A stretch of DNA of 36,466 bases from IMG/VR virus record IMGVR_UViG_3300020045_003272, positions 1-36,466 of that record; one strand, 5' to 3'. The DNA is from a virus. Lineage: Duplodnaviria; Caudoviricetes. The notes under the pieces were generated by a model. It was not told the DNA's origin and searched no databases. It saw nothing but the letters and a program-made list of their open reading frames with translations. Shown piece by piece: positions 855 through 34,761 of this stretch. The stretch's first letter is position 1. Every line of letters begins with the position of its first letter. The translations under genes and the position numbers were made by a program.

Positions 855-900
855 ATTATAACAAACTACTGTTGACGCGTCAACAACTAAATAACATAAT
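855..900. promoter_or_regulatory. Divergent sigma70 promoters sharing the perfect palindrome TGTTGACGCGTCAACA (870-885)
   Basis: Minus strand TTGACG(883-878)-17-TATAAT(860-855); plus strand TTGACG(872-877)-17-CATAAT(895-900). Confidence 0.8.
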
Positions 901-22046: not shown

Positions 22047-22495
22047 TTGGAATTGATGATATTATCGCCACAGGTTTAAAGATTATTGATAAAGTTATTC
22101 CAAATCCAGAGGCTCGTGCAGAGGCACACCGAAAGCTTTTAGAGCTTCAACAAACAGGTGAGTTAAAACTTGAAGAGTTTGATATTAAACGCGAAGAATT
22201 ATCAATTAACGATAAGATAAGCGCAAGAACAATGCAGGGCGCTGCACTTGGACAGGATGATTTATTCTCAAAGAGATTTATATATTATTTCTCAATATTC
22301 TGGTCAATTGCTAGTGCGACATATATAGGATTTATAACGTTTGGAACAATACCAGTTGAGAATACTAGGTTTGCCGATACAATATTAGGATTTTTATTAG
22401 GAACTGCAATTGCGGGAATGTTTTCATTCTTTTACGGTTCTAGCAGTTCAAGTAAAAACAAGGATGCAATAATCCAAAGTATGACAAACAAATGA
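22043..22495 (+). CDS. Putative holin
   Basis: IIDKVIP.P.A.A N-terminus; two hydrophobic helices; FF.GSS.SSK.KD C-terminus; follows the endolysin. Confidence 0.75.
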   Translation: MIGIDDIIATGLKIIDKVIPNPEARAEAHRKLLELQQTGELKLEEFDIKREELSINDKISARTMQGAALGQDDLFSKRFIYYFSIFWSIASATYIGFITFGTIPVENTRFADTILGFLLGTAIAGMFSFFYGSSSSSKNKDAIIQSMTNK

Positions 22496-22599
22496 ATTAT
22501 CTAAAAAAGCAATTCCAGAAAGTGCCGATTTACTATAGAGGTGTTCTATTAGTAGGGATTATATTTTTAGTGTGTACTTTCTTGGTGCAGGTGCTCTGA
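22492..22599 (+). CDS. Small single-TM peptide, 35 aa (MNYLKKQFQKVPIYYRGVLLVGIIFLVCTFLVQVL)
   Basis: Manual translation; ATGA overlap with the holin stop. Confidence 0.55.
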   Translation: MNYLKKQFQKVPIYYRGVLLVGIIFLVCTFLVQVL

Positions 22600-22647
22600 A
22601 AAGAACTTATCGCAGGGGTTGATTTTATCCTGACTAAAGTATAATAT

Positions 22648-22678
22648 AATACGCAGTAGTTTTAGGCTGCTGCGTATT
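22648..22678. terminator. Strong hairpin at the end of the late operon
   Basis: AATACGCAGTAG...CTGCTGCGTATT inverted repeat with AT-rich flanks near the late/early convergence. Confidence 0.7.
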
Positions 22679-22692
22679 TATTAAGGATTATT

Positions 22693-22785
22693 ATGGCAAG
22701 AATATTAGATGTTTTAATATTGATTTCTTTAGCTACAGGGTTAATTGCCTTAATGAAACTTGTTATATGGCCGTTACTTTTCTAA
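22693..22785 (+). CDS. Small hydrophobic peptide, 30 aa (MARILDVLILISLATGLIALMKLVIWPLLF)
   Basis: Manual translation; AAGGA RBS. Confidence 0.5.
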   Translation: MARILDVLILISLATGLIALMKLVIWPLLF

Positions 22786-22971
22786 AGCGGAGTATTGATA
22801 TTTTCCCGCCTCTCTTACATACTTTATCTTACTCACCCATGCAGTATCACAATTATCACATGCAAAATATGGGCTATATTCTATAGTAGATAGGAAATGG
22901 GGCTGTTTATTTTTGCAATCATTATCAGGGTGGTTATTCTTACCGCGCCTTGTTTCTATGTAACTTCTCAT
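22774..22971 (-). CDS. Small Cys-motif protein, paralogue of 23080..23289; start probably at ATG 22971
   Basis: RGK...C....P..LS...FACDNCD..W motif. Confidence 0.7.
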   Translation of the reverse strand: MRSYIETRRGKNNHPDNDCKNKQPHFLSTIEYSPYFACDNCDTAWVSKIKYVREAGKYQYSALEK

Positions 22972-23083
22972 GAATTGCCTGTTTTTTATATGTTCCACAG
23001 CGTTCGCAACGTCTAAATAATACGTTATTTGCGAAATCGCCTATTAATTTAATTTTATGCCATCCGAAAAAACATCTAATCAT
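22940..23083 (-). CDS. DUF1660-like Zn-ribbon miniprotein, 47 aa (MIRCFFGWHK...RCERCG...)
   Basis: Manual translation; AGGAGGAG RBS; C.FG.H...C.RCG signature. Confidence 0.65.
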   Translation of the reverse strand: MIRCFFGWHKIKLIGDFANNVLFRRCERCGTYKKQAIHEKLHRNKAR

Positions 23084-23289
23084 ACTCTCCTCCTTATTGT
23101 TTTATTGATGCGGTCTTGCCAAGAGTCGTCACAATTATTGCAAGCGAATTGATTGATATGATTATTAATTGATAGGATAAACGGCTTATGTTCTACACAA
23201 TTTAATCCTGCTTTTCCGCGTGGGATTTCGTTATATTTCTTTACTAATGCACTTCCGTGAGTGCCTTCGCCTGATTGATTACTCTTCAT
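23080..23289 (-). CDS. Small Cys-motif protein, paralogue of 22774..22971
   Basis: RGK...C....P..LS...FACNNCD..W motif; ATGA coupling. Confidence 0.7.
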   Translation of the reverse strand: MKSNQSGEGTHGSALVKKYNEIPRGKAGLNCVEHKPFILSINNHINQFACNNCDDSWQDRINKTIRRRV

Positions 23290-23735
23290 AAAAAATATCC
23301 TTGTTGTTGTAGTTTTTTCAATACTTTATCGACTTGTTTTGCTGCACTAGCATCTTGTTTTCTTATATCCTCATTCTGGATATTCTTCTCGAATTCATCA
23401 TTCATTGAATTTAATAACTCAATACAGTTTTCACTTAGTTCTATAGATTCGTTTTCATGTAAAATATAAGCTAGGCGGCTAAATATCATATACGCCTTTC
23501 TTCTGGGCATCTCTTCCGCCACAAAAGGGTTAAATAAGCTATTTCGCAGCTTTTCTATTCTTGTTGCTAAATTCCTAGATATTATATTTTTGTTTATATC
23601 TTGGGATAGTTTTTTCAATCCTTCTTGATATGCGGCTTTATCCTCTGCATCGTCATCTTTATGTTGTTGAATAAGAGAAAAAAGACAAAAAGGAATAAAT
23701 GCATCTTCCACTCTGTGTTTATCTGACTTATACAT
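23286..23735 (-). CDS. Hypothetical protein, 149 aa
   Basis: ORF track; GAGG RBS; overlaps both neighbours. Confidence 0.8.
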   Translation of the reverse strand: MYKSDKHRVEDAFIPFCLFSLIQQHKDDDAEDKAAYQEGLKKLSQDINKNIISRNLATRIEKLRNSLFNPFVAEEMPRRKAYMIFSRLAYILHENESIELSENCIELLNSMNDEFEKNIQNEDIRKQDASAAKQVDKVLKKLQQQGYFL

Positions 23736-24099
23736 ATTTAATCCTCACATATAATCTAACAGTTTTATAAACCCACCAAGCGCGTAATTTGCACATACCG
23801 TCCTCAATACAGATTTGCTTTAGAAGTATATCCGCATTTAACCGTTGAGATTGTGGCAGTCGCTTTAGTGCAATCAATTGACACGCTGCATCGTGAATAA
23901 GTGAACCTCGCATGAAGTTCTTTGTATCAATACCACCTGTTGCACCATCCCAAGCATAACCCTCTTTAATTGTCATCATTCCGCTTTTATGCAGGTATAT
24001 AAAATCCTCTTGAATATCCTCATTCAGCACGATGTTGGTTTGTACGTTGTACGTACTAGTTAGTTGATATTTCCATTTGGGGAGCTTTCTATATTTCAT
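23728..24099 (-). CDS. DUF1353-family protein
   Basis: GYAWDGA...SLIHDA...AD..L...GM...RA...Y..VR motif. Confidence 0.8.
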   Translation of the reverse strand: MKYRKLPKWKYQLTSTYNVQTNIVLNEDIQEDFIYLHKSGMMTIKEGYAWDGATGGIDTKNFMRGSLIHDAACQLIALKRLPQSQRLNADILLKQICIEDGMCKLRAWWVYKTVRLYVRIKYV

Positions 24100-24572
24100 C
24101 TACTTAGGTTATCCGCATAATCTTGTGATGTTTTCCATTCGCGGAAGTCTCTTAATAAAACATGAAATGCATCTTGAGCGTTTTTATTAGTAGCTAGTTC
24201 AGAGCGTGATTTAATATTGCACGCGTCATAAATGGCACCAATTGCCCCATCCTCTGATGATACATATTGCCAATCCTCTCCCGCGCTAAGATTCCCAACA
24301 TATTTCTGGAAACCAGAATCTTTACACAACATAACCGCCATAGTTCTAAGTCTCTCACCTTCTATTTGTTCAGTAATCAAAGATTCTTTTACAACTCCAT
24401 TGCTTTCGTCATAGTAATCGGCATCTATAAACACTACGTAATATCTTTTCCCCATTGGGTCGGAATATAAAAAATCTGGCATATCGGCGTGCTGGATGGT
24501 AAAGCCTAGCTTTATCTCGCCACCCTGCATCTGACGTAAAGAATCCTTTTTTACCTCTAGTTTATCATTCAT
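24096..24572 (-). CDS. Conserved phage hypothetical protein
   Basis: A.MLC.D..FQ...C.I.SRSEL..N..A...F motif typical of phage recombination regions. Confidence 0.75.
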   Translation of the reverse strand: MNDKLEVKKDSLRQMQGGEIKLGFTIQHADMPDFLYSDPMGKRYYVVFIDADYYDESNGVVKESLITEQIEGERLRTMAVMLCKDSGFQKYVGNLSAGEDWQYVSSEDGAIGAIYDACNIKSRSELATNKNAQDAFHVLLRDFREWKTSQDYADNLSR

Positions 24573-24574
24573 AT

Positions 24575-25150
24575 TTAATCCTTTTCTAATTCTAATCCTA
24601 TATTTGCAAGGACTCCTTTTATTTCATTTAATGATCTGCGCCCAAAATTAGGAAGCTTTAATAATTCTTTTTCTGACCATCGTAATAAATCAGAAATATT
24701 TCTTATGTTGCTATTCATTAAACAATTCCGCGTTCGACATGCGAAGTTAAATTCATCAATAGATATATTATGTTGTTTATAATATAATTCTCTTTCTATT
24801 TGGTCTTCTTTAGCTCTTTTAATAGCTAATTGACGATTCTCTTCTTGTATCTCTGCCATCCTTCTATTTTCACGCATGCATCTATTTCGAGAAGGATGTT
24901 TTAATTTTCTTAATGCTTTAGATTCAATTTGGCGAATCCTATTTCCAGTTACACCAAAATCTAATCCTATAGCTTTTAATGTACAAAAATCATATCCATT
25001 GAATGCGAATCTTTTATATAAAACTAATGCTTCTCTTTCCGTTATAGTAGTCATTATATCTTCAATGAATATGCTCTCTGAAAATGAATATTGTTCAGAT
25101 ATTTTTGAATCATTAAACACAGTTTCGATTAAATCTTTATAACTCATCAT
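24575..25150 (-). CDS. Fusion of sigma70 region 4 and RNA polymerase alpha subunit C-terminal domain
   Basis: aa 31-90 TEREALVL..RF...TL..IG..FGVT..RIRQIESKALRKLKHPSR match RpoD region 4; aa 128-188 IDEF....RTRNCL...I..I.DL...SE.ELLKLPNFGRRSLNEIK.VL...GL match RpoA CTD. Confidence 0.92.
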   Translation of the reverse strand: MMSYKDLIETVFNDSKISEQYSFSESIFIEDIMTTITEREALVLYKRFAFNGYDFCTLKAIGLDFGVTGNRIRQIESKALRKLKHPSRNRCMRENRRMAEIQEENRQLAIKRAKEDQIERELYYKQHNISIDEFNFACRTRNCLMNSNIRNISDLLRWSEKELLKLPNFGRRSLNEIKGVLANIGLELEKD

Positions 25151-25355
25151 TTCTCCTTAGAGTATTTCCAGTTTCATACGTTTCGATAACTGCCCTTGCT
25201 ATAGTGCCGTAATCATATTCATTATCATTGTCTTTATCCTTAGTCTCACATAACTCTTCTAAAATAAGAGTGATTTTCTCTAATAATGTCAAATTATATG
25301 CATTAATACGCTCTATAACTTCTTTGTATTTGTTGTTAAATATCTGCGGCATCAT
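25137..25355 (-). CDS. Hypothetical protein, 72 aa, flanked by 24-bp direct repeats
   Basis: ORF track; AAGGAG RBS within the repeat. Confidence 0.75.
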   Translation of the reverse strand: MMPQIFNNKYKEVIERINAYNLTLLEKITLILEELCETKDKDNDNEYDYGTIARAVIETYETGNTLRRNDEL

Positions 25356-25373
25356 TTCTCCTTAAAGTATTTC
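25145..25373. repeat. 24-bp direct repeats (25145-25168 and 25350-25373, one mismatch) containing RBS and start codon
   Basis: CATCATTTCTCCTTA(G/A)AGTATTTC; both upstream proteins end in NTLRRND. Confidence 0.9.
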
Positions 25374-25746
25374 TAATTGCTTCACTTGGACTTCTATTAG
25401 CTAAATCATCTGCTATTAATTCAGGGTTTTTATCCCAACCTTCCCAAAATGTTTCTTCACCCATTTGATGTAATGTATTATGATGAATTTTGCATAAAGG
25501 CACGGTGTTACTATCACATGTTTTAGTGGAAGTTCCTTTGTCTTTGAGTTTATTCTTTAGCGCCGTTAAATGGTGGGCTACACGGCTTTTGACTACATCC
25601 CACACTCTTTCACCTCTTGTGCATTTATGTGATAACCAGTGACTCATATTAATATGCTCATCATCCTTAGTTATACAGCATGGCTGCTCCCGTACAAATT
25701 TACGGTGTATAGGAGAGCGTATTTTAGTTGTTTTAACGATTTGCAT
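25336..25746 (-). CDS. DUF968-family putative HNH nuclease
   Basis: FVR.QPCC...AHHL...K..D...VPLC..HH..LH..GE..FW motif. Confidence 0.85.
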   Translation of the reverse strand: MQIVKTTKIRSPIHRKFVREQPCCITKDDEHINMSHWLSHKCTRGERVWDVVKSRVAHHLTALKNKLKDKGTSTKTCDSNTVPLCKIHHNTLHQMGEETFWEGWDKNPELIADDLANRSPSEAIRNTLRRNDAADI

Positions 25747-25843
25747 TCATACCCTCTATGAATAATAATGTAAAACCTAGTAGAAAATAACCTATTGGTA
25801 AATCATAGTATAAACCTGCAAAGAACGCGAATATTGCTACCAT
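25733..25843 (-). CDS. Small membrane peptide, 36 aa (MVAIFAFFAGLYYDLPIGYFLLGFTLLFIEGMNANR)
   Basis: Manual translation; fills the gap between 25844 and 25746. Confidence 0.45.
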   Translation of the reverse strand: MVAIFAFFAGLYYDLPIGYFLLGFTLLFIEGMNANR

Positions 25844-26038
25844 CTATTCATCTATCCATTTCTTGAGTTGAGCTATTAGTCCTTGATTTTCATAAACATA
25901 TTCACCAGAATCAAGAAATCTTATTATATCAGGCATAAGCTCCATTATCTCACGCAGCTTGGCTTCCATTCTATGCGGATTTGCTCTGCATAAATGATTC
26001 TCTTCTTTTGCTATCTCTAGTATATCAGCTATCTTCAT
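25844..26038 (-). CDS. Hypothetical protein, 64 aa
   Basis: ORF track; AAGGAG RBS. Confidence 0.75.
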   Translation of the reverse strand: MKIADILEIAKEENHLCRANPHRMEAKLREIMELMPDIIRFLDSGEYVYENQGLIAQLKKWIDE

Positions 26039-26053
26039 AACAACTCCTTAAAT

Positions 26054-26108
26054 TGGTGGGCGGTGTAGGTATACCACTAGCCAAGAACTCCCAGCCAATA
26101 CACCGCCC
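26054..26108 (-). ncRNA. 55-nt tRNA-like mini-element (acceptor-like stem plus ACCA)
   Basis: GGGCGGTGTA...TACACCGCCC-ACCA with an internal G-U-rich hairpin; intergenic after ssb. Confidence 0.5.
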
Positions 26109-26117
26109 ATAATGTAA

Positions 26118-26558
26118 CTAAAAAGGCACCTCGTCCGATAATATATCTTCCGAGCTTTCACTAGGAGCGTATCCATTACCTTTAGCCTGACTATGCTGCG
26201 ATATATCATCCGATTTACTATCCAGTAATTGAAGAGTGCCATTAAACGCCTGTAACACAACCTCGGTACTATAACAATCCTTTCCAGATTGGTCTTGCCA
26301 TTTCCTAGTTTGCAAAGAACCTTCCACATATATCTTAGAGCCTTTTTTAACGTAGGATTTAATCACGCCGATTAGTCCTTGATTAAATACAGATATTTTA
26401 TGCCATTCAGTTTTTTCTTTGCGCTCGCCAGAATTTTTATCTTTCCAATATTCGGAAGTAGCAACGCTGAAATTAGCAACTTCACGGCCATCTTGTGTTG
26501 AGCGTATTTCAGGGTCTTTACCGACTCGGCCAATTAAAATAACTTTATTTACTGACAT
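26118..26558 (-). CDS. ssb: Single-stranded DNA-binding protein
   Basis: SVNKVILIG..G.DPEIR...ATSE.WKD...GE.KE.TEWH...LQTRKW.DQ; acidic DEVPF tail. Confidence 0.97.
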   Translation of the reverse strand: MSVNKVILIGRVGKDPEIRSTQDGREVANFSVATSEYWKDKNSGERKEKTEWHKISVFNQGLIGVIKSYVKKGSKIYVEGSLQTRKWQDQSGKDCYSTEVVLQAFNGTLQLLDSKSDDISQHSQAKGNGYAPSESSEDILSDEVPF

Positions 26559-26730
26559 ATTTACTCTCTATTGATTGTTGTAGTTCATTTAGTATCTTCT
26601 TTGCTGTTTCTATATCCCAAAACTCAATAACTTTCGTCCGCTCTTTTAAAATAATAAATCGAACACCAGTAGACATTGGTATAGCTTCCACAAAGGTTTT
26701 ATTCTTAAATGGGTCTATATATTCTATCAT
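26545..26730 (-). CDS. Hypothetical protein, 61 aa
   Basis: ORF track; coupled between erf and ssb. Confidence 0.7.
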   Translation of the reverse strand: MIEYIDPFKNKTFVEAIPMSTGVRFIILKERTKVIEFWDIETAKKILNELQQSIESKYVSK

Positions 26731-27320
26731 GGCAATGCTTCGGTTAGTTTAGTAATTTCCGCCTCGACTTTATCTGATAATATTTTGTCATCGATATAAA
26801 GCTTATCTCTAGCGTCTATAACTACTTGCAGTTTAGTCCATTCTTTAAGGGCTGCATATTCAGTAAATCCTTTTGCCTTTGTTATAAGCCTATCTGCTGT
26901 ATCTTGCGGAGTCACAACTTTAGGTGCTTTAGATACTTTAGATGAGTTATCTTGAGAATCAGCATCAACACCATCATCAATAGCAAATAATCCGTTTAGA
27001 GCGTATTTGCGAGCATATGATGATGCAGCACCAGTAATCTGAGAGGAATCCATGCCTTTTTTGTCATCGGACTCACGCGCCCATCCTTCAGCCTTATACC
27101 ACTTATCACCACTTTGTAATGTAGCAACAGCCTTAACATAAAAACGACTACCTATGAGAATTATCTCATCAGTAAGAATAAGATAACTTCCCTCTGGAAG
27201 TAGTTTTTTTACCGCATCAATAATATCCTCAGCATTACGATAATTGTAATTACCAAAAGAATTACGTCTATTTTTTGGCACGGATAATTTTACTTGTATT
27301 TCGTGCAATATATCAATCAT
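26727..27320 (-). CDS. erf: ERF-family ssDNA annealing protein (recombinase)
   Basis: PK...N.FG.Y.YR..EDI..AVK and GMD.SQ.TGAASSYARKYAL.GLF.IDD motifs. Confidence 0.93.
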   Translation of the reverse strand: MIDILHEIQVKLSVPKNRRNSFGNYNYRNAEDIIDAVKKLLPEGSYLILTDEIILIGSRFYVKAVATLQSGDKWYKAEGWARESDDKKGMDSSQITGAASSYARKYALNGLFAIDDGVDADSQDNSSKVSKAPKVVTPQDTADRLITKAKGFTEYAALKEWTKLQVVIDARDKLYIDDKILSDKVEAEITKLTEALP

Positions 27321-27380
27321 ACTAACCCCATATAATAATCATACATCATTTGCTCATCTTCTTCGCTTATGTGTTCTAGT

Positions 27381-27548
27381 TTATCCATGATTCCTACCAG
27401 TAGCTAATCTTGCTACAATACTTGTAGCTTCTTTTTTACTTACATTATCAAACCAAGTTTCTTTAAATTGACCATTTGTATCGCTAACTTTTACTATTTT
27501 TTTGTCAGAATATTCTTTACTATTTTCTAGTTTAATGATTTTCACCAT
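27381..27548 (-). CDS. Small hypothetical protein, 55 aa (MVKIIKLENSKEYSDKKIVKVSD...)
   Basis: Manual translation; GGGG RBS. Confidence 0.55.
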   Translation of the reverse strand: MVKIIKLENSKEYSDKKIVKVSDTNGQFKETWFDNVSKKEATSIVARLATGRNHG

Positions 27549-27625
27549 ACTAAAACCCCATCTTAATTAATACCCACACCAACACAAATAAACCTATCAT
27601 TATATATGCTTTAGTGTGGAAGTTG

Positions 27626-27832
27626 TTATTGAACATGTATTCCGTTTTTATTTAAGTTATCTATTAATAATTGCCTTCTTTTTTCATCAACAATCATAAT
27701 AACGCCAGCTCTTAATTTAGCTTCCATATCCCTATAAGTAGATGATTTAACTATCATTGCGCCAGCGTGATGCAGCTCCTCATCATCAATGTTAGCGGCG
27801 TTATGTATTGAAGCCTCTTGTTTTATACGCAT
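27626..27832 (-). CDS. Hypothetical protein, 68 aa
   Basis: ORF track; TAATG coupling. Confidence 0.7.
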   Translation of the reverse strand: MRIKQEASIHNAANIDDEELHHAGAMIVKSSTYRDMEAKLRAGVIMIVDEKRRQLLIDNLNKNGIHVQ

Positions 27833-28128
27833 TATATTTCATCCCTATAAAATTCAATATTCTTAATGTTATTTAAACTTGCCATTTCAGCCGCACTAAA
27901 CATTGCTGTATATGAATTGCCAAAACTACTTATGGCATTAGCTACTTCAAGCTTTTTGCGCTCGTAATCTGCAATTTCTTCTTCATTAGGCTTAACAGCC
28001 CAATCTTGACGAAAACAATCCCGAGCAGTTGACTCACGTAAATCATAAACAGAGCATGCTGTAAGCTGTTTTACGATAAAGCCATCCTCACATATTTTCC
28101 TAGTTTGCATCATTTTTACATAAGTCAT
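27832..28128 (-). CDS. Hypothetical protein, 98 aa; first gene of the leftward early operon
   Basis: ORF track; AGAGG RBS; no HTH or S24 peptidase signature. Confidence 0.75.
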   Translation of the reverse strand: MTYVKMMQTRKICEDGFIVKQLTACSVYDLRESTARDCFRQDWAVKPNEEEIADYERKKLEVANAISSFGNSYTAMFSAAEMASLNNIKNIEFYRDEI

Positions 28129-28162
28129 TTTAAACCTCTTTAGTTGTTATTCGGTAAAACCA

Positions 28163-28253
28163 TTTATATACGCTACTAGCGAACAATGCAAGTATTATTT
28201 TAACGCTGACAGCGACTTTTTTAATTGACATATGTAAAACAATAACTTACACT
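28163..28253. promoter_or_regulatory. Divergent early promoters with two CGCT-N3-AGCG operators
   Basis: Leftward TTGCAT-17-TATAAA (28191-28163); rightward TTGACA-17-TACACT (28225-28253); palindromes at 28171-28181 and 28204-28214. Confidence 0.75.
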
Positions 28254-28285
28254 TACTTCAAGTTAAAACAACCAAGGGATGACAG

Positions 28286-28516
28286 GTGAAAGTAGGCGCA
28301 GTTAAATTAAAAAAGTATATATTAGAATCTAAAGAAAAAAACAAAACAATAGATAGTATAGCTAAATCAATAGGTTGTTCGCGCTCTTATTTATTAGAGC
28401 TTGCGAGTGGAAAAAAGAACGCTCCCTCCATAGATATGGCAAACAGGATACAAACTATGACTAGAATAAAAATTAGTGATTGGAGCAAAGATGAGAAAGT
28501 CACCGAAGGAATTTAG
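28286..28516 (+). CDS. Cro-like XRE helix-turn-helix regulator
   Basis: TIDSIAKSIGCSRSYLLELASGKKNAPSIDMA..I; first rightward gene. Confidence 0.85.
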   Translation: MKVGAVKLKKYILESKEKNKTIDSIAKSIGCSRSYLLELASGKKNAPSIDMANRIQTMTRIKISDWSKDEKVTEGI

Positions 28517-28688
28517 GCAATTGCTCGACCACTATAATATAACAGTGGCAGATATTTCGCGCTATTCTGGTATTAGTGATGGTTTAATTTATGACTGGTT
28601 AGCAGGTAGATATAAACCAACTATGAAACAATGTACTTATGATAAAATAATTGAGGCGTATAAGCGATTAAAACAGGGTAAATACTAA
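28491..28688 (+). CDS. Second small HTH regulator; start probably at ATG 28491
   Basis: ITVADISRYSGISDGLIYDWLAGRYKP; GGAG RBS before ATG 28491. Confidence 0.8.
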   Translation: MRKSPKEFRQLLDHYNITVADISRYSGISDGLIYDWLAGRYKPTMKQCTYDKIIEAYKRLKQGKY

Positions 28689-28852
28689 TGAGAACAACGT
28701 CACATGATTTATTAATGGCTGGCTGGCATACGATATATGTCGCTGGCAAGACTTATTGGTCGCATCCTAACTTTAATAATATGGTACGGTTTGTATTAGC
28801 TGTTGCTGTACTAAAAGAACGTGGCGTTGATAAAGATGGGTTTATGATATGA
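28688..28852 (+). CDS. Small hypothetical protein, 54 aa (MRTTSHDLLMAGWHTIYVAGKTYWSHP...)
   Basis: Manual translation; TAATG/ATGA coupling. Confidence 0.6.
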   Translation: MRTTSHDLLMAGWHTIYVAGKTYWSHPNFNNMVRFVLAVAVLKERGVDKDGFMI

Positions 28853-34401: not shown

Positions 34402-34761
34402 ATGACTGATAAACTAAAGAACTGCCCGTTTTGCGGAAGTGAGCATATCTCATATCAATTTGCAGAAAGAATGAAGCCGCAACCGCATTTTGTTGCGTGC
34501 CTAACGTGTGGTGCAACTGGTAGATATACGCAAGAAAAATGGTATGCATTACAATCTTGGAACAGCCGCGCTTCTAACACACAAATAGAATCCCTCACCG
34601 CCCAGCTTGAAGAGGCTACAAAGGCTTTGGAGTTTTATGCTGACAAAAGTAATTATAACGATGGCGGCCCAGATAATTACGGTGGAAGGTATGAGTGTAC
34701 AATTGAGGATGATAATGGACAGGTAGCAGAGCAAGCACTATCTACAATAAGAGGTAAGTAA
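34402..34761 (+). CDS. Lar-family restriction-alleviation-like protein with C-terminal extension
   Basis: LKNCPFCG...V.C..CGA.G...WNSR signature. Confidence 0.85.
   Translation: MTDKLKNCPFCGSEHISYQFAERMKPQPHFVACLTCGATGRYTQEKWYALQSWNSRASNTQIESLTAQLEEATKALEFYADKSNYNDGGPDNYGGRYECTIEDDNGQVAEQALSTIRGK

Follow-up and report, generated by a model that had tools for sequence, protein, structure and literature searches.

A phage protein joining sigma region 4 to an alpha C-terminal domain, a possible mimic of RNA polymerase's upstream face

The phage gene at 24575..25150 (minus strand) encodes a small protein, labelled P0001 here, in which a helix resembling the flap tip of the RNA polymerase (RNAP) beta subunit, an RpoD-type sigma region 4 (sigma4) and an RpoA-type alpha C-terminal domain (alpha-CTD) are joined in one chain. 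We favour, with a confidence just short of even, the interpretation that P0001 is an independent DNA-binding mimic of RNAP's upstream face that would compete with the holoenzyme at AT-rich upstream promoter DNA. A flap pocket that would be filled in advance, kept alpha-CTD DNA contacts, a presumably relaxed reading of the -35 element and an early accessory position all fit such a stand-alone competitor. The window analysed here, i. e. the whole stretch of 36,466 nucleotides, is a complete virus record, circular with direct terminal repeats, of a 36.5-kb phage. Host-contig contamination was rejected because the gene lies inside this circular record.

Two non-overlapping Pfam matches exceeded their curated cut-offs: Sigma70_r4 (PF04545) at residues 34-85 with 44.9 bits (cut-off 24.1), and RNA_pol_A_CTD (PF03118) at residues 125-182 with 67.2 bits (cut-off 23.8). 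No other Pfam family matched P0001, neither Sigma70_r2 nor the alpha-NTD, and only 28 residues precede sigma region 4. The NCBIfam full-length RpoD and RpoA models all scored far below their cut-offs (TIGR02027 reached 69.4 bits against 227.8). Without region 2, without an alpha-NTD and so far from the full-length models, P0001 is not a truncated sigma factor or alpha subunit, and this candidate was rejected. Sequence matches in the PDB were alpha-CTDs over residues 130-190 and region 4 of primary sigma factors over residues 29-93. An AlphaFold2 model based on a 52-row alignment reached a mean pLDDT of 96.6 and a pTM of 0.74; its alpha-CTD half aligned with solved alpha-CTDs (Z 12.8, rmsd 1.7 over 67 residues) and its sigma4 half with 7kuf_B (Z 10.3, rmsd 1.6 over 71 residues). 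Pfam, PDB, alignment and fold place sigma4 at residues 29-93 (24872..25066, minus strand); Pfam, PDB and fold place the alpha-CTD at residues 128-188 (24587..24769, minus strand). Between them lies a charged linker, residues 94-127 (24770..24871, minus strand; 16 of 34 residues charged), which the model predicts as a single helix (98-126) of about 44 A, and two further helices (4-12 and 15-20) stand ahead of sigma4. These results bear out the initial annotation, which had described a sigma4-helical linker-alpha-CTD protein that is neither a sigma factor nor an alpha subunit. The helix at residues 3-13 was absent from it.

The ORF comprises 191 codons, but its first ATG is probably not the start codon. 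The Shine-Dalgarno sequence AAGGAG (25153..25158, minus strand) is separated from the first ATG by 2 nt and from the second by 5 nt, and the product of the second ATG has the N-terminus MSYKDL, as in the relatives P0002-P0004. Because both the spacing and the relatives point to the second ATG, translation probably starts at 25147 and yields 190 aa. Ribosome-binding site and start codon are located inside a 29-nt direct repeat (family D7; 25145..25173), of which a second copy, 90% identical, is present at 25350-25378. The two copies bracket a 72-aa ORF (25137-25355) that begins in the upstream copy; this repeat-flanked ORF looks like a gene cassette exchangeable by recombination. Two ORFs upstream of the fusion gene share the C-terminal peptide NTLRRND.

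Terminase, P22-like portal and P22-type coat protein genes identify a P22-like phage, and its genome is AT-rich (GC 32-44% in the window). A divergent switch region lies at about 28130-28285, with helix-turn-helix (HTH) genes on its right and a leftward run, from about 28128 to 22774, of genes for ERF, SSB and small unknown proteins on the other side. The fusion gene belongs to this run, in keeping with its earlier assignment to an early leftward operon. No Q-like activator had been seen before, and scans of 30 ORFs against Pfam and 30 against PHROGs, in overlapping sets that took in some but not all of the small ORFs, revealed neither a Q-like nor an integrase family; the switch is of lambdoid style and accompanied by HTH genes, yet an integrase is absent among the scanned ORFs of the window. 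Two related palindromes in the switch region, at 28171-28181 and 28204-28214 (CGCTACTAGCG, CGCTGACAGCG), are likely operators for the adjoining HTH proteins. A promoter scan of 22400-28700 returned 22 sites where 30.1 were expected, and no promoter is claimed for the fusion gene. At 34402-34761 the window also encodes a Lar-like restriction alleviation protein. The best 15 matches of the phage SSB in a plasmid collection came from Rhizobium, Sinorhizobium, Shinella, Bandiella, Paracaedimonas and similar genera, which we take to be Alphaproteobacteria. Judged by these best-ranked SSB matches, the host is probably an alphaproteobacterium.

P0001 is not a singular gene. A word search retrieved P0002, a full-length relative with 67% identity on a separate 36.9-kb contig, together with further two-domain proteins, and profile and representative searches added more sigma4/alpha-CTD relatives. 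Among 349 proteins and 5 locus ORFs, 74 consist of exactly one sigma4 followed by one alpha-CTD, in sets that were found with P0001 as the query and hence favour its motifs. In the Atlas, several clusters of at least 50 members and about 200 aa contain both Pfam families, and their few labelled members are viral. Thirteen loci with a fusion were collected. Since SSB, RecT, ERF, RusA or Dam were found by Pfam near the fusions at the six loci where chosen neighbours were scanned, the phage recombination/replication region is the usual home of fusion genes. Four of the five locus-derived fusions scanned carry an extra N-terminal HTH. By these alignments and profiles, P0001 is one member of a widespread family; this is the wider occurrence for which the initial annotation had proposed a survey. 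Queries of viral_contigs with P0001 and with a clade motif yielded no close relative at the DNA level, and the clade motif had three matches in metagenomes, none with a sigma4/alpha-CTD fusion ORF. No record in the cultured-phage collection covered 80% of P0001, the one two-domain match there being an unannotated faecal contig.

The 67%-identical full-length relative on a separate contig and the 74 proteins of the same order speak strongly against an assembly artefact. That P0001 is a functionless chance fusion of captured host fragments, or else an assembly chimera, is for the same reasons hardly credible. Between P0001 and P0002 the N-terminal helix (77% identity), sigma4 (75%) and the alpha-CTD (69%) are better kept than spacer and linker (50%), the gene has a strong ribosome-binding site, and GC3 is alike low in all three gene segments (0.12-0.21).

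Apart from the fusions, lone alpha-CTD ORFs of 116-273 aa without sigma4 were observed on viral contigs (L003, L009, L013, L017, L024, L028, L037), with similar entries in BFVD; stand-alone phage alpha-CTDs thus seem to be a broader unstudied class. In a second architecture, large proteins contain 2-12 copies of the alpha-CTD, and sigma4 often comes after them (P0095, P0107, P0110, P0111 and many others).

Upstream of sigma4, the family alignment contains a short hydrophobic helix, and residues 3-13 of P0001 (25112..25144, minus strand) lie within this block of conserved columns. A profile of the 11 columns matching these residues, made from 70 fusions with RpoB excluded, was run against E. 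coli RpoB; the columns were picked after the likeness had been noticed, and beta 897-907 ranked first of 1332 windows with 15.4 bits, the next window scoring 5.8. Shuffled RpoB reached this score once in 300 trials. In the resulting register L7, I8, V11 and F12 of P0001 fall on beta L901, L902, I905 and F906. The matched segment is the flap-tip helix that sigma4 binds (PMC9388147), and L901, I905 and F906 are the residues that insert into the pocket of AsiA (PMC6755090). The likeness is a property of the family (mean score 13.1 versus 7.7 for shuffles), with many members individually not significant and P0001 alone at p = 0.055. Aligned with the flap tip by hhalign, the helix profile paired the same ten columns, although weakly (probability 2.4%, P 0.019). 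Modelled alone, residues 1-97 form one domain with a pTM of 0.84, in which helix 4-12 has a pLDDT of 90-94; helix and sigma4 are thus predicted to make up one compact domain. Structural aligners did not place residues 4-12 on the beta tip of sigma4-beta-tip chimeras, where the permuted order may prevent pairing. The N-terminal helix likely fills the flap pocket of sigma4 in cis, and P0001 would then be a natural version of the engineered sigma4-beta-tip chimera.

The helix could also be a mere placeholder that swaps out for the real flap tip. P0001 would then be an adaptor on the flap that displaces host sigma4, brings in an extra alpha-CTD and redirects promoter choice, i. e. sigma appropriation in one chain. 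A precedent is free AsiA, in which the flap pocket is occupied by the protein's own helix A6; on RNAP this helix swaps out (PMC6755090). Moreover, F563 (F48) and L598 (L83) are kept in P0001, and changed -35-reading residues would suit new promoters. On the other hand, an intramolecular copy of the flap has a concentration advantage over the real one, and the clearest promoters of the phage carry near-consensus TTGACG -35 boxes with no sign of a new -35 class. Sigma F610 and L611, which we assume to be part of the flap pocket, are N95 and R96 in P0001, and F610 is kept in only 6 of the 74 fusions. We therefore rate the adaptor as markedly unlikely.

P0001 and the other fusions were aligned to E. 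coli RpoD and RpoA, and all residue assignments of the initial annotation hold: R584/E585 replaced by G/N, the activator patch and the alpha-CTD DNA contacts. In sigma4, R584 and E585 correspond to G69 and N70, and E574 to K59. These three positions are invariant in 66 of 66 full-length RpoD (primary-sigma) controls; the fusions keep R584 in 32, E585 in 54 and E574 in 23 of 74 cases. N at position 585 occurs in 5 of the 74 fusions, and G/N at 584/585 is confined to P0001 and P0002 within a seven-member clade. By this alignment the G69/N70 change is not a family trait. The neighbouring residues R586 (71/74), R588 (67/74) and Q589 (68/74) are largely retained. K593, R596, K597 and R603 are unchanged in P0001 and R599 is K84; this basic patch is also kept in the family (K593 in 66, R596 in 69, K597 in 59, H600 in 62 and R603 in 60 of 74), a conservation that partly reflects how the relatives were found. 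As R584 and E585 contact the bases at -32/-33 (PMC5101437), P0001 sigma4 probably no longer reads TTGACA as RpoD does.

This pattern is also what would be expected of a sequence-specific regulator of the phage's own promoters, in which sigma4, its specificity changed, recognises a phage operator, perhaps as a dimer via the linker helix, while the alpha-CTD adds affinity, and which represses or activates a phage unit. The base-reading residues R584, E585 and E574 vary while R586, R588 and Q589 are kept, as in regulator families that diversify their sites, and the extra HTH domains of the relatives would suit such a role. Candidate targets are present as well. The palindromes TGTTGA(C/T)GCGTCAACA at 345-360 and 870-885 are back-to-back -35 boxes in near-consensus promoters: 883-855 (minus strand) matches at 11 of 12 positions, 872-900 (plus strand), directed toward the terminase genes, at 10 of 12, and 358-330 (minus strand) also at 10 of 12. 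They are candidate operators for late or accessory control. However, the fusion gene is situated among variable accessory genes, beside the repeat-flanked cassette and far from these palindromes, and nothing ties the two together. Dimerization through the linker also has little in its favour: only 4 of 9 a/d heptad positions in P0001 are hydrophobic, and the linker motif L..EN..L is found in 6 of the 74 fusions. Taken together, an operator-specific regulator appears rather unlikely.

The alpha-CTD keeps its DNA-binding side. Of the E. coli residues, R265, N268, N294, G296 and S299 are identical in P0001 and K298 is R172, so that R139, N142, N168, G170, R172 and S173 form an intact set; N268, G296 and S299 are here presumed to contact DNA. 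R265, N294 and K298 are UP contacts (PMC5101437). Of the 74 fusions, 73 retain R265 and 73 retain G296. To compare surfaces, 81 fusions were each set against the nearest of 42 host RpoA rows, with Fusobacterium RpoA left out. The six DNA-contact positions agreed with this host row in 423 of 486 cells (87%). The 258/259/261, 271-273 and 285-288 patches, of which those around 273 and 287 are presumably activator patches, were identical in 136 of 243, 103 of 243 and 154 of 324 cells (42-56%), and a control surface in 149 of 405. This contrast is inflated, as hosts do not differ at the DNA positions but do in the activator patches, and the nearest host only approximates the true one. Nevertheless, kept DNA contacts together with drifting activator patches favour DNA binding over a soluble decoy as the likelier function. 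In P0001 itself D259 is E133 and E261 is N135. D259 and E261 form the 261 determinant that contacts sigma R603 (PMC5511352). Because of the E261N change and the 44-A helix predicted between the domains, a holoenzyme-like contact of sigma4 with the alpha-CTD in cis is unlikely. The linkers of the family span 5-119 aa, so no fixed RNAP-like geometry is kept.

A decoy would bind host proteins that grip sigma4 or the alpha-CTD, such as activators, NusA, anti-sigma factors or a defence sensor of these surfaces, and DNA binding would be secondary. It would account for the sigma4 patch K593/R596/K597/H600/R603, kept in 59-69 of 74 fusions, and sigma4 with a filled flap site is the very construct used to bind activators outside RNAP (PMC10245118). 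That the alpha-CTDs of the fusions track host RpoA types also speaks for a decoy. Yet the activator patches of the alpha-CTD are only 42-56% identical to the nearest host, K271, which is invariant in the 42 host rows, is M145 in P0001 and kept in only 19 of 74 fusions, and a decoy would not need such strict upkeep of the DNA-contact residues. We consider it unlikely.

Compared with host RpoA, the P0001 alpha-CTD has an identity of 53-56% with Alphaproteobacteria, 55% with Comamonas, 48% with E. coli and 36% with Bacillus. In a small panel the nearest RpoA of the 81 fusions was of Bacillota type in 36 and of alpha type in 38, the rest being beta, gamma or actinobacterial. A tree of the 81 fusions and 19 hosts was calculated from 61 columns, with Bacillota hosts thinned, Fusobacterium dropped and a bootstrap that had not settled; its starred branches force at least four label changes, and in 0 of 200 bootstrap trees did a branch set all fusions apart from the hosts. 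The RpoA of the Muribaculaceae-labelled genome G001 forms a pair with one fusion (100/95), and two others join beta/gamma RpoA (99/95), while P0001 and P0002 lie outside the alpha/beta/gamma host clade at a position that the tree leaves unresolved. Since the fusion alpha-CTDs group with different host RpoA types, repeated capture or refreshing of the alpha-CTD from host rpoA is suggested. Three fusion-bearing phage contigs with Bacillota-type alpha-CTDs (L093, L094, L095) occur in genomes titled Muribaculaceae, Gammaproteobacteria and Moraxellaceae; the RpoA of genome G003 itself is Bacillota-like, that of G001 is not. Titles or bins are therefore unreliable as host evidence.

The stand-alone competitor that we favour could act as follows. 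P0001 would bind AT-rich (UP-type) DNA both at the -35 position and farther upstream. With the flap-tip-like helix in the pocket, the host beta flap would not be needed and mostly not be taken. The alpha-CTD would supply a minor-groove grip on AT-rich DNA, and sigma4, with R584/E585 lost and the neighbouring arginines kept, would hold the DNA at a second place with relaxed or altered specificity. Made early together with ERF and SSB, the protein could weaken strong UP-dependent promoters of the host, adjust AT-rich promoters of the phage itself, or both. Possibly, the kept basic patch of sigma4 meets DNA-bound activators without giving them a polymerase. Two points weigh against this scheme. 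A monomer with one alpha-CTD and a de-specified sigma4 may be too weak on DNA to outcompete RNAP, and as the phage genome is AT-rich, a general UP competitor would hit phage promoters too.

The initial annotation had offered three roles, and they did not fare equally. Competition at UP-element promoters fits best, because the alpha-CTD DNA contacts are the best-kept surface. Against the flap-binding adaptor stand the flap-tip-like helix that P0001 itself contains and the missing F610/L611, although AsiA shows that a cis helix can swap out; the activator decoy is weakened by the drift of the alpha-CTD activator patches, although the basic patch of sigma4 is kept. A bolder interpretation is that phages have repeatedly built a catalytically empty upstream face of RNAP (flap tip, sigma4 and alpha-CTD) from host rpoB-, rpoD- and rpoA-like parts, and that this face takes the place of the holoenzyme on promoters and in contacts with DNA-bound activators. 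This seems doubtful to us at present, but if true, such a "polymerase decoy on DNA" would control transcription in a way for which no natural protein has been described. The fusion design recurs in phages with Bacillota-, Bacteroidota- and proteobacteria-like alpha-CTDs and may thus be a common but unstudied way for phages to take over the host or to time their own genes. P0001, small and well folded in prediction, would be a compact means of silencing or probing promoters that depend on UP elements and activators.

What is known of phage control of host RNAP comes mostly from small, unrelated proteins with sigma4, the flap or alpha as their binding partner. P0001 belongs to this known kind, the phage proteins that interfere with promoter recognition by sigma4 and the alpha-CTD. 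What is new is that copies of the host modules themselves are joined in one chain; as the initial annotation had supposed, no characterised protein of such design was found, and searches of the open-access literature turned up no description of a sigma4/alpha-CTD fusion. The portion of the jumbo-phage survey covered by this search (PMC7824862) does not mention it either. The outcome proposed for P0001, loss of alpha-CTD/UP-dependent transcription, e. g. from rRNA promoters, resembles that of gp67 of Staphylococcus phage G1, for which blocking alpha-CTD/UP contacts is enough to stop rRNA transcription, so that the strategy is a known one among phages (PMC3694059). However, gp67 binds host sigma4 on RNAP whereas P0001 carries its own sigma4 and alpha-CTD, and gp67 gave no match to P0001 in the PDB sequence search. 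T4 AsiA, acting with MotA, is a functional mimic of sigma4 that keeps its own helix in the flap pocket when free (PMC6755090). Unlike P0001 it is not a sigma4 homologue beyond the HTH, has no alpha-CTD and binds host sigma4 and flap; no AsiA was among the matches listed in the Pfam, PHROG, PDB and fold searches. Re-use of the alpha-CTD outside RNAP is also known from PglW of type-2 BREX defence, which has an alpha-CTD-like domain (PMC12839542). PglW-type and alpha-CTD-repeat/sigma4 proteins are large, mostly with the repeats before sigma4 (A-A-S and longer), in contrast to the small phage design.

The closest structural counterpart is the upstream face of the holoenzyme, i. e. sigma4 with the flap tip and the alpha-CTD on UP/-35 DNA (3N97, 9ZUM, 1KU7). 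P0001 shares its folds (alpha-CTD Z 11.8-12.2) and the DNA contacts of its alpha-CTD, but it is a single short chain detached from the catalytic core, differs at R584/E585 and alpha E261, and has its domains set apart by a 44-A helix in the model. The engineered sigma4-beta-flap-tip chimeras (3T72, 7KUF, 8CWR/8CWT, 8D5V), which mimic the holoenzyme state of sigma4 (PMC10245118), combine a flap-tip helix with sigma4 as P0001 appears to do. P0001 differs in being natural, in having the flap-like helix N-terminal instead of C-terminal, with docking that is predicted, and in the added alpha-CTD. In P0001, nature appears to have made the crystallographers' sigma4-flap-tip chimera and to have added a domain that reads UP elements.
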